Positions 56,841 to 59,243 of a DNA stretch of 64,000 nucleotides are shown here, in pieces (positions within the stretch are counted from its first letter, which is position 1; every line of letters begins with the position of its first letter). Origin of the DNA: a phage. Position numbers and translations under genes: made by a program. The notes under the pieces are model-generated. The model was not told where the DNA came from. It ran no database searches and saw only the letters and a list, made by a program, of their open reading frames with translations. The stretch is from the sequence record PZ295659.1; one strand, 5' to 3'.

Positions 56841-57404
56841 TTATTTACCTAGTTTAGTTATTATAGCTTCGGCAGCAGCTTTTAGCTTAGATGCAGTGTT
56901 AATACGATTTTTAATTTCAGTATACGCATCGCCAAGAACATCAAGGCTATCAGAATAAACACTTACACTATTGCGTTCGCTATTTGAAATAGAACCTTTA
57001 GTTTTACGATCAAAATCAGTGTACACGTCTTGAAGATCACGGGCTGCCTTCTTTGCATCATCCAATGCATCAAGAGCTTTATTCAAAGCATTGACATATT
57101 TTTTAGTGTCAAACATATTCTTAGAAATTTTAACAGGTGCACGTTCAGGAGTAGCTAAGGCGGATTTAGGAACCTGCGTGCCAGATGCCAGTTTCTTAGA
57201 AATTTTGAAAAACGCTTTATTGAAACTATTTTCTTGACTCATCGTAAAAGAACTAGTATCGATGTTATACATTTCAATAGCTTTAGCTTTCCACTTAAGA
57301 AAATCGCCACGGTCTTTTGGATCCAAGTGGAAGAATACTTTAGTAAGATCTGCTTCAGATGGTAATTTTGCTGCTTCTGTTAAAAATTCGGCATAGGTTT
57401 TCAT
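56841..57404 (-). CDS. internal-protein-like (Ip) with capsid targeting sequence
   Basis: N-terminus MKTYAEFLTEA; 187 aa. Confidence 0.6.
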   Translation of the reverse strand: MKTYAEFLTEAAKLPSEADLTKVFFHLDPKDRGDFLKWKAKAIEMYNIDTSSFTMSQENSFNKAFFKISKKLASGTQVPKSALATPERAPVKISKNMFDTKKYVNALNKALDALDDAKKAARDLQDVYTDFDRKTKGSISNSERNSVSVYSDSLDVLGDAYTEIKNRINTASKLKAAAEAIITKLGK

Positions 57405-57492
57405 TTAAAATCCTTGAAATAATTTATCGGTTTGTTATTAATTATTTATTACTTTGGTATTATTAGTAACAGCATTCTCTGAGTGATTCAAA

Positions 57493-57521
57493 CTAAAAAG
57501 CCCCAACCTTTCGGAAGGGGC
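57493..57521 (-). terminator. rho-independent terminator (copy 2 of repeated hairpin)
   Basis: Same GCCCCUUCCGAAAGGUUGGGGC + U-tract as 41387-41416. Confidence 0.55.
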
Positions 57522-57833
57522 TAAGCCTTGCGGCAACCTTGTCGGGGTTCCACCTGCTAAGGCAAGTGTTTGTACGAAACGCCGGGATTCGAACCCGGTT
57601 ATTAAGCAGTTGACGCTACTCAATATTTTTAAAAGGCCATATCTCGACCATATCCGAACGTTCCGTCAAAAACGCTACTCGGCTTACGGCAAAGATATTT
57701 CCTCGAATCGATAATTCTGTGCGCCGTTTCTGCTGTGATGTAAGGGGATATTAACAAATCATAAAGATTTATTAAGACCAGTCCTTACGCAGGGAACATC
57801 AGTCCGACGACTTACCGGTAGCGACCCGGCTTC
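57522..57833 (-). ncRNA. possible small stable RNA / degenerate tRNA region
   Basis: ~310 nt without convincing ORF, relatively GC-rich, canonical T-arm CCGGG-TTCGAAT-CCCGG (plus 57582-57598) but no full cloverleaf found; ends at a terminator. Confidence 0.25.
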
Positions 57834-58178
57834 TTATTTTGGCATATCATCAATTTGCTCTCGACGCCGACGCCATAGATTAATCGCTTCATTAGCACAT
57901 TCGGCGTTTGGTATATGGCGGCAATAATATAATGATTCGCGTTTCTGGAACCGATGTTGCAACGGGATTTCGTTTAAAAGGTCTTTACGGTCAAAGTATT
58001 CAAAACTAGTTAACCCGGAACGATTTTTAAGGAACTTCCAATGGCCGAATTCATTTTGAACATAGATGTAATCTGCATGTTGGTATAACAAATTAATCAA
58101 TCGGTCTGAAATAACTGTATCATATTCGTTAAAATAAAACGTTAAATCATGAACTACCAGATAAATATTGCCTTTCAT
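57834..58178 (-). CDS. hypothetical protein
   Basis: Track ORF trimmed to ATG 58178 to avoid overlapping tRNA. Confidence 0.45.
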   Translation of the reverse strand: MKGNIYLVVHDLTFYFNEYDTVISDRLINLLYQHADYIYVQNEFGHWKFLKNRSGLTSFEYFDRKDLLNEIPLQHRFQKRESLYYCRHIPNAECANEAINLWRRRREQIDDMPK

Positions 58179-58196: not shown

Positions 58197-58273
<77 letters not shown>

Positions 58274-58279
58274 AATATA

Positions 58280-58353
58280 TGACCCAGACCAGATTCGAAC
58301 TGGTAACCTTTCCCTTATGAGGGGACTGCTGCTAACCGTTGAGCTACAGGGCC
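58280..58353 (-). tRNA. tRNA with anticodon CAU (Ile2 or Met)
   Basis: Acceptor GGCCCTG/CTGGGTC (one U-U mismatch), T-arm ACCAG-TTCGAAT-CTGGT, anticodon loop CTCATAA; D-stem weak. Confidence 0.5.
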
Positions 58354-58952: not shown

Positions 58953-59243
58953 TCACCGTACCATATTAATGTAGTTATATTCAATGCAACGTAATTTCAA
59001 AGGGTTCTTGAAAATATCATATTCAAGAGGGCCTGATTCAGTTTCAATAAAGAAATCAAAGTTAACTGTGTTAAATTTATCATCTTCACAGAGTAATTTA
59101 ACCTGTGAAGACGAACGGTCGATGTAAACCTTTTCAACTTCAAAACATGTTAAAATGCCATAATCATCAATCAAGGCTTTAGCTGCTTCTTGATCATATT
59201 TATATCCATTTTCAATGGATGATACTTTCGCATAAAGAATCAT
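58953..59243 (-). CDS. hypothetical protein
   Basis: 96-aa ORF. Confidence 0.45.
   Translation of the reverse strand: MILYAKVSSIENGYKYDQEAAKALIDDYGILTCFEVEKVYIDRSSSQVKLLCEDDKFNTVNFDFFIETESGPLEYDIFKNPLKLRCIEYNYINMVR

Follow-up and report, generated by a model that had tools for sequence, protein, structure and literature searches.

Homologs of the T4 stable RNAs rnaD and rnaC, the latter with a tRNA-like fold, beside the tRNA genes of an RB69-like phage

A non-coding stretch at the end of a tRNA gene cluster

The DNA analyzed here, a stretch of 64,000 nucleotides (PZ295659.1; hereafter the window), comes from an RB69-like (Mosigvirus) T4-type phage, and its positions 57300-57950 are 97.8% identical to RB69 (AY303349, 73886-74536). 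The genes of this region are carried by the minus strand in the order tRNA-Met, tRNA-Arg, an ORF of 114 amino acids, a non-coding stretch, and an ORF of 187 amino acids (Table 1). The original prediction, which had been made from the sequence, placed a possible stable RNA or tRNA remnant in the non-coding stretch, next to the tRNAs. Both tRNA genes indeed lie just upstream of it in the direction of transcription, at a distance of 0.5-0.8 kb and on the same strand.

The ORF between tRNA-Arg and the non-coding stretch is the homolog of RB69ORF150c. A mechanically called version of 130 aa starts from a TTG at 58226 and so shares sequence with tRNA-Arg (58197-58273). This phrog_3355 gene most likely begins instead at the ATG at 58178, as in the RB69 annotation. 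The phrog_3355 family also adjoins a tRNA-Met in Karamvirus VIPECLOM01. The ORF downstream of the stretch, a phrog_2280 member, begins with MKTYAEFLTEA, which resembles the leader of the T4 internal head proteins (T4 IpI begins with MKTFKEF). Its earlier labeling as an internal protein (Ip) gene is plausible given this N-terminal likeness but is unproven, as BLASTP of the ORF against T4 IpI gave no alignment. Searches of Pfam and PHROGs with the flanking ORFs, and with the ORFs found in place of the RNAs or next to them in related phages, returned families of unassigned function only.

In agreement with the claim that the stretch contains no convincing reading frame, we found that only ORFs of 34-61 aa with TTG starts overlap 57405-57833. 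These short frames are not consistently open in close relatives, and the 42-aa frame is absent from RB69 and LH01. The stretch is also richer in GC than average, as had been noted, with 42.4% against 37.0% for the window, which places it in the top 1.8% of 429-nt windows; for the RNA block described below (57493-57837), the value rises to 47.0%, in the top 0.1%. The extent initially assigned, 57405-57833, captured this block but needs correction at both ends. The block begins at 57837, and the stop codon of the ORF150c homolog (57836-57834) falls within its first 4 nt and hence inside the rnaD homology. At the other end, the last ~90 nt (57405-57494) are the leader of the downstream gene, where conservation with T4, which stops at the terminator, is no longer seen.

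Table 1. Features of the region, listed in the direction of transcription (positions in the window).
Feature	Position	Strand	Remarks
tRNA-Met(CAU)	58353..58280	-	Upstream member of the same gene cluster
tRNA-Arg(UCU)	58273..58197	-	Upstream member of the same gene cluster
RB69ORF150c homolog, phrog_3355, 114 aa (345-nt ORF)	58178..57834	-	Between tRNA-Arg and rnaD
rnaD (T4 species 2 RNA) homolog, ~120 nt	57837..57718	-	85.8% identical to T4 over 120 nt, 98.3% to RB69; ends taken from homology
rnaD 5′ hairpin P1, GCCGG-GUCGCUA-CCGGU	57814..57830	-	Closing pair covaries AU/GC/GU among T-even phages
rnaC (T4 species 1 RNA) homolog, 139 nt, tRNA-like	57711..57573	-	98.6% identical to T4 rnaC, 139/139 nt covered
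rnaC acceptor-like stem, 5′ strand CGAUUCG	57704..57710	-	Pairs with 57581..57575
rnaC P2 apical loop UUGACG	57664..57669	-	Complementary to the P3 loop in 21/21 sequences
rnaC P3 loop CGUCAA	57610..57615	-	Proposed kissing partner of the P2 loop
rnaC T arm CCGGG-UUCGAAU-CCCGG	57582..57598	-	Middle pair covaries G-C, U-A, A-U
rnaC acceptor-like stem, 3′ strand CGUUUCG	57575..57581	-	Abuts the T stem without a spacer, tRNA-like
Conserved 3′ trailer	57523..57572	-	Hairpin CACUUGCC-UUAG-CAGGUG at 57568..57551 and a small GCAA-loop hairpin
Intrinsic terminator	57495..57522	-	Hairpin and U5; closes the tRNA/stable-RNA transcription unit
AT-rich leader, and possibly promoter, of the phrog_2280 gene downstream	57405..57494	-	22.7% GC; outside the RNAs
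RB69ORF149c homolog, phrog_2280, 187 aa	57404..56841	-	Downstream of the stretch

The stretch aligns with T4 rnaD and rnaC

The RNAs rnaC and rnaD are textbook features of T4 that date from the 1970s. As a reference for the alignment, we used the annotation of the T4 record, in which rnaD (species 2 RNA) comes right after tRNA-Arg and is followed by rnaC (species 1 RNA). The reverse complement of the window matches T4 rnaD, rnaC, the ~80-nt trailer, and the terminator with 322 identities over 349 nt (92%), from about 57839 to 57493 on the minus strand. The identity amounts to 85.8% for rnaD, 98.6% for rnaC, and 92.6% for the trailer, and the order rnaD, rnaC, trailer, terminator is common to the window and T4. 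This alignment bears out the suggestion that the stretch is the counterpart of the T4 stable RNAs. Judged by homology, the stretch very probably encodes this phage's own rnaD and rnaC, followed by the conserved trailer and an intrinsic terminator, all on the minus strand. With 86-99% identity to T4, both the gene and the kind of feature are already known, and all that this lineage lacks is the annotation.

The gap in annotation is wide. Neither rnaC nor rnaD is annotated in the RB69 record. About 800 phage records carry the stretch, and a few of them label the two RNAs (RB27, RB10, GiZh, and T2L). In many GenBank records, a "hypothetical protein" has been placed over it instead (LH01, WFbE185, Klebsiella EI and Marfa, Kosakonia 305, and NM4.3). 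Among the relatives, we noted such coding sequences on rnaC/rnaD homologs, some of them with ribosome-binding sites, at L019 343-480, L024 516-653, L029 726-830, and L027 683-811, and further ones at L022 606-734, L021 445-618, and L008 1564-1722. These are probably annotation artifacts.

Standard RNA finders passed over the stretch as well. ARAGORN made no tRNA or tmRNA call in it, the tRNA model of Rfam (RF00005) gave no match in 57405-57837 even at E ≤ 10, and only the two tRNAs passed the gathering score in Rfam 15. The best Rfam match in the stretch was isrK, on the opposite strand, with 16.5 bits against a threshold of 50 (E = 1.7). The sole YrlA match of the neighborhood falls on the real tRNAs, with none in the stretch. 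This silence arises because neither RNA has an Rfam family and because rnaC is not a cloverleaf. Thus, the lack of a covariance-model hit, which the original prediction would have counted against a stable RNA, was indeed obtained with Rfam and ARAGORN but is misleading, since no model for these RNAs exists.

rnaC has a covarying fold with tRNA-like acceptor/T-arm geometry

The perfect T arm that had drawn attention to the locus, CCGGG-TTCGAAT-CCCGG, is found at 57598..57582 of the minus strand. The 64 kb contain a single copy of GGTTCGAATCC, whose sole match with one mismatch is the real tRNA-Arg. To place the arm in its structural context, we aligned 21 distinct rnaC sequences from at least nine genera, namely Tequatro-, Mosig-, Karam-, Moon-, Kanagawa-, Gelderland-, Kagamiyama-, and Marfavirus together with Edwardsiella phage PEi20. 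The length is 138-142 nt in all 21 homologs. In the consensus fold, a 7-bp terminal stem (C2-G137 to G8-C131) passes without a break into the 5-bp T stem, as the acceptor stem does in a tRNA; besides the T arm, the fold contains a long arm, P2 (positions 9-78), and a 10-bp hairpin, P3 (positions 87-112). The acceptor-like stem includes two U.U mismatches that are invariant, and its third pair is A-U in 6 sequences and G-C in the other 15.

The proposed pairing is strongly reflected in the alignment. Across the 43 pairs, 98.4% of the cells hold standard pairs, as compared to 36-51% when the partners are slid by one to three columns. Double, compensatory changes are found in 24 of these pairs, and the observed values were reached in none of 500 shuffles. 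For the copy in the window, the minimum free energy is -50.2 kcal/mol (z = -4.55). A covariance model built from the 21 homologs, the window's own sequence included, scores this copy at 152.7 bits and finds it as the single match in 64 kb. Furthermore, the P2 arm has been swapped wholesale for unrelated sequence in several phages with its pairing retained; selection therefore acts at the level of the RNA and not of codons.

The T arm itself is not uniform among the homologs. In rnaC of the Kanagawavirus type (L018, L277, L280, and L282), the T stem is kept and the loop UGCAUGC replaces UUCGAAU. A canonical T loop is not required in the Kanagawavirus lineage, and hence T-loop identity is not a universal requirement.

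The apical loops of the two remaining arms are complementary to each other in every homolog. The motif GAGTAGCGT, reported earlier as duplicated, occurs at 57680..57672 and 57621..57613 on the minus strand and nowhere else in the window; its two copies compare with a chance expectation of 0.21, and at least two copies were obtained in 3 of 100 shuffles. Each copy corresponds to the 5′ strand that runs up to one of these two loops, P2 or P3. The clade of Klebsiella Marfaviruses has both loops altered together, to UUGGCG/CGCCAA, which turns an A-U into a G-C pair. This co-change, which represents one evolutionary event in one clade, suggests a kissing-loop contact between P2 and P3. Such a contact might also be made between two molecules rather than within one.

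rnaD consists of conserved cores around a replaceable arm

The 14 rnaD sequences, each from a different phage, share an almost invariant 5′ core of ~50 nt (AGAANCCGGGUCGCUACCGGYAAGUCGUCGGACUGAUGUUCCCUG) and a 3′ core of ~22 nt (AUCACAGCWGAAACGGCGCAC). The central hairpin between the cores has been swapped wholesale in the genomes of BW-1-type phages and of Dhakavirus B-01. The stem of the 5′ hairpin P1 has taken on a new sequence in Vequintavirinae W70 (UCGGG/CCCGA) and another in Jiaodavirus KP185 (UCAGAA/UUCUGA). Our model for rnaD consists of this 5′ hairpin, an invariant terminal stem, and the replaceable central arm. Its 24 proposed pairs are kept in 97% of cases, as compared to 33-54% for slid partners; six of them show double changes, and most never vary. 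The model is thus moderately supported and is weaker than that of rnaC.

We also considered a tRNA-like CCA end on rnaD. The bases that follow GCGCAC are CA in T4, CG in RB69, and AG in the window, and the candidate was rejected because of this difference between phages. With an overlapping ORF stop codon and without an adjacent tRNA, the 5′ end of rnaD may differ here from that in T4.

Trailer, terminator, and transcription signals

The trailer downstream of rnaC is 92.6-98.9% identical to those of T4, RB69, and VR20 and is kept even in phages that do not carry rnaC. Its fold (MFE z = -2.96) shows one double change, from G-C to A-U, in LH01. The strong terminator described at the end of the stretch can be read directly from the sequence as the hairpin AGCCCCUUCCGAAAGGUUGGGGCU followed by U5 (57522..57495, minus strand). 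A simple terminator scan missed it because its stem has two U.U mismatches. Among the homologous sites, a terminator is annotated by ARNold in PhAPEC2, and the stem in T4 is a perfect 10 bp. Transcription of the T4 tRNA cluster has been reported to stop past the species I gene (PMC2330249).

Between the tRNAs and the RNAs, a scan for sigma-70 promoters gave no site on the minus strand. Upstream of the cluster, inside the start of the tRNA.2 homolog, we noted a sequence resembling a T4 late promoter, TATAAATA, at 59204..59197 on the minus strand. This motif, which is no more frequent in the window than expected by chance, could drive late transcription like that reported for T4 RNAC/RNAD.

Many relatives carry an insertion of ~550 bp past the rnaC terminator, among them PhAPEC2 (L003 1686-2269), L010, L013, L015, L026, and L027. 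It contains a second phrog_2280 gene (154 aa) bordered by a second copy of the final ~40 nt of the trailer/terminator, an arrangement that resembles a shuffling of cassettes through terminators in the internal-protein region.

rnaC and rnaD are independent modules of tRNA gene clusters

In the genomes compared, rnaC and rnaD are independent modules that nearly always reside in tRNA gene clusters. In Karam-, Moon-, and Gelderlandviruses, rnaC occurs alone between tRNA-Trp and tRNA-Gly with spacers of ~5 nt. In EcS1, rnaC has tRNA-Phe and tRNA-Trp as its neighbors, and in Kanagawa- and Marfaviruses, it is found downstream of tRNA-Met. Conversely, rnaC can be missing while its surroundings persist. 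In Gaprivervirus VR20 (L007 1743-2126) and Yersinia phage P8 (L008 1744-2127), an ORF of 127 aa, which gave no Pfam or PHROG match, takes the exact place of rnaC between rnaD and the trailer, and in Dhakavirus B-01, rnaD is joined straight to the trailer.

For its part, rnaD lies directly past the CCA end of a tRNA in T4, W70, RZH, and KP185; in Karamvirus RZH and Jiaodavirus KP185, the rnaD that follows the tRNA is diverged. In the lineage of the window, the phrog_3355 ORF has separated rnaD from tRNA-Arg. The module is also found outside the T4-type phages, in Vequintavirinae W70 and A73, where the cores are identical to those of T4, the P1 stem is compensated, and rnaD comes directly after the CCA end of tRNA-Met. 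The central hairpin of the copy in W70, an rV5-like phage (OP778610, L030 1197-1297), resembles the Karamvirus version. Together, these features suggest that the rnaD module has spread horizontally from one phage family to another.

W70 contains a further tRNA-like sequence, GCGCGGG...GAAGGUUCGAGUCCUUC...CCCGCGC, which immediately precedes its tRNA-Met (L030 ~1025-1110). It has an acceptor stem and a T arm with an aberrant middle and received no ARAGORN call.

The pattern TTCGAGGA..TTGRCG..CGYCAA was searched in genome and metagenome contigs, and among the matches listed (at least 240 loci, checked by regular expression), all were chance matches in unrelated GC-rich bacteria. Scans of IMG/VR returned T4-type contigs only, together with a few extra variants.

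Probable maturation and possible roles of the RNAs

RNAC and RNAD of T4 have been detected as late RNAs by RNA sequencing, with Northern validation using an RNAC probe (PMC9697503). Together with general tRNA biology, the T4 literature leads us to infer the following course of events for the window. tRNA-Met, tRNA-Arg, ORF150c, rnaD, and rnaC would probably be co-transcribed, with read-through to the terminator at 57522..57495. Cleavage by RNase P and 3′ trimming of the tRNA type are likely for rnaC because it combines an acceptor/T minihelix with tRNA-like spacing in the arrays. The host tRNA-processing machinery would thus release rnaC: RNase P would make its cut at the acceptor stem, and endo- and exonucleases would remove the 3′ trailer. 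An acceptor/T-arm minihelix is the minimal substrate of both RNase P and the CCA enzyme. As in T4, rnaD and rnaC would then accumulate as stable species.

The function of the T4 stable RNAs has been called unknown (PMC3014915; PMC9697503; PMC12685909), and our literature search found no reported function for rnaC or rnaD. All lines of the T4-like phage BW-1 that were evolved on E. coli ECOR34 acquired a single SNP within rnaD (PMC12685909), which hints at a host-dependent role. On the side of the host, the candidates are proteins that bind the acceptor/T arm of tRNAs, for example tRNA-processing, tRNA-modifying, or tRNA-targeting defense enzymes. It is conceivable, and we offer it as our best but tentative guess, that rnaC mimics the top half of a tRNA and occupies such a protein, in which case the kissing loops would lock the body of the RNA. 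The tRNA-like domain of tmRNA, the bacterial Y-RNA-like YrlA, and the 3′ tRNA-like structures of plant viruses all borrow the acceptor/T-arm shape of tRNA to engage tRNA-binding proteins. T4 deletions of the whole region permit growth on laboratory hosts.

A comparable chance must be given to a rival reading in which the same RNAs have another role: instead of mimicking tRNAs, they might act in trans as base-pairing regulators of phage or host mRNAs, or might serve only to protect the tRNA precursor against exonucleases at its 3′ end, thereby stabilizing it. Long invariant stretches of rnaD that are predicted to be single-stranded, GGACUGAUGUUCCCUG and AUCACAGCAGAAAC, speak for pairing with other RNAs, and a regulatory role was suggested by the authors of PMC12685909. 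In T4-type genomes, both RNAs close the operon on its 3′ side, which likewise agrees with this reading. However, Karam-, Moon-, and Gelderlandviruses have rnaC within the tRNA array and not 3′-terminal. The invariant loops of rnaC are complementary to each other and not free, and BLASTN against 5,426 complete E. coli genomes gave no match, so that there is no detectable host or prophage homolog.

A broader proposal, which we regard as rather doubtful, extends the tRNA-mimic guess to both RNAs. Here, rnaC would be a decoy of the tRNA top half, either locked by the kissing contact or assembled into loop-linked head-to-tail multimers, rnaD would be a horizontally mobile module shared by Straboviridae and Vequintavirinae, and both would counter host factors that act on tRNAs. 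If this counter-measure were real, it would explain why the RNAs ride in tRNA arrays and why rnaD mutated convergently on a natural E. coli isolate.

Alternatively, the stretch might act in cis only, as a structured 3′ UTR/terminator region of ORF150c and as a recombination cassette (terminator plus promoter) for gene shuffling, with no discrete RNAs produced in this phage. ORF150c does run into the block with its stop codon overlapping it, the terminator end of the trailer is duplicated around the extra phrog_2280 gene of PhAPEC2 and many relatives, and the trailer persists in genomes that do not have rnaC. We nevertheless consider this very unlikely, because the cassette behavior is confined to the last ~40 nt, because rnaC/rnaD modules occur with their own folds kept but without ORF150c in T4, Karamvirus, and W70, and because the T4 copies, which are 86-99% identical, are discrete RNAs.

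The original prediction also allowed for a decayed tRNA gene, a functionless pseudogene remnant beside live tRNAs of which the T arm is the last recognizable piece. A perfect T arm and a tRNA-type acceptor/T junction adjoining two tRNA genes are what such a remnant could leave behind, and neither ARAGORN nor the Rfam tRNA model recognizes a tRNA here. A remnant would, however, gather unpaired changes and indels, whereas length and fold have stayed constant in at least nine genera with compensatory changes in 24 pairs, and the T4 homolog is an abundant stable RNA (PMC9697503). Decay is thus contradicted by the covariation and by the constant length and fold across the 21 homologs, and we hold it to be highly improbable. 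Of the "orphan" T arm, the kinship to tRNA stands, as the arm is accompanied in rnaC by an acceptor stem; its status as a remnant falls with the evidence for structural selection. rnaC may nevertheless have originated from a tRNA, without decay.

Finally, we give almost no credence to the idea that the stretch encodes small proteins of 34-61 aa, as implied by the "hypothetical protein" entries over the homologous stretch in the GenBank records named above, since the ORFs of 42, 46-61, and 34 aa that are open in the window all have TTG starts and are not consistently open in close relatives, one of them crosses the terminator hairpin, and the swap of the P2 sequence with retained base pairing in distant homologs reflects selection on the RNA.

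Finding rnaC and rnaD in an RB69-like genome is in itself routine. The practical point is that the two RNAs have no Rfam model, are missed by tRNA finders, are unannotated in RB69, and are often mislabeled as "hypothetical protein". Beyond this, the tRNA-like minihelix, the covarying complementary loops, the modular spread through tRNA arrays, and the presence of rnaD in an unrelated subfamily offer handles on a question of function that is ~50 years old.

Comparison with known systems

The closest relatives are the T4 RNAs themselves. T4 rnaC (NC_000866, 70908-71046) shares with the copy in the window 137 of 139 nt, the strand, the fold, and a place where the tRNA region ends, just ahead of the trailer and terminator. 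The two differ by only two bases, and by the fact that RB69-type records leave rnaC unannotated. T4 rnaD (NC_000866, 71053-71171), at 85.8% identity, has identical 5′ and 3′ cores, P1 hairpin, and terminal stem and likewise lies 6 nt upstream of rnaC, whereas its central hairpin differs from that of the window. It begins 2 nt past the CCA end of tRNA-Arg, from which the rnaD of the window is separated by the 345-nt phrog_3355 ORF. The 3′ end reads ...GCGCACCA in T4 and ...GCGCACAG in the window; an encoded CCA-like end is therefore not conserved.

With tRNAs and acceptor/T-arm minihelices, rnaC has in common the 7-bp terminal stem continuous with a 5-bp T stem, the UUCGAAU loop, and the tRNA-like spacing in arrays. 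In contrast to a canonical tRNA, it has no D arm, no anticodon arm with a 7-nt anticodon loop, and no encoded CCA, and its acceptor stem contains the invariant U.U mismatches. A functional tRNA would be a cloverleaf with an anticodon arm, which rnaC does not form. Moreover, the annotated 3′ end of T4 rnaC lies just 1-2 nt past the acceptor-like stem with no CCA; rnaC is therefore not an analog of a tRNA that can be aminoacylated. From tmRNA, rnaC differs in having no tag reading frame and no ARAGORN tmRNA call. What sets rnaC apart from tmRNA, YrlA, and the plant-virus mimics alike is its pair of arms that are predicted to be joined by complementary loops.
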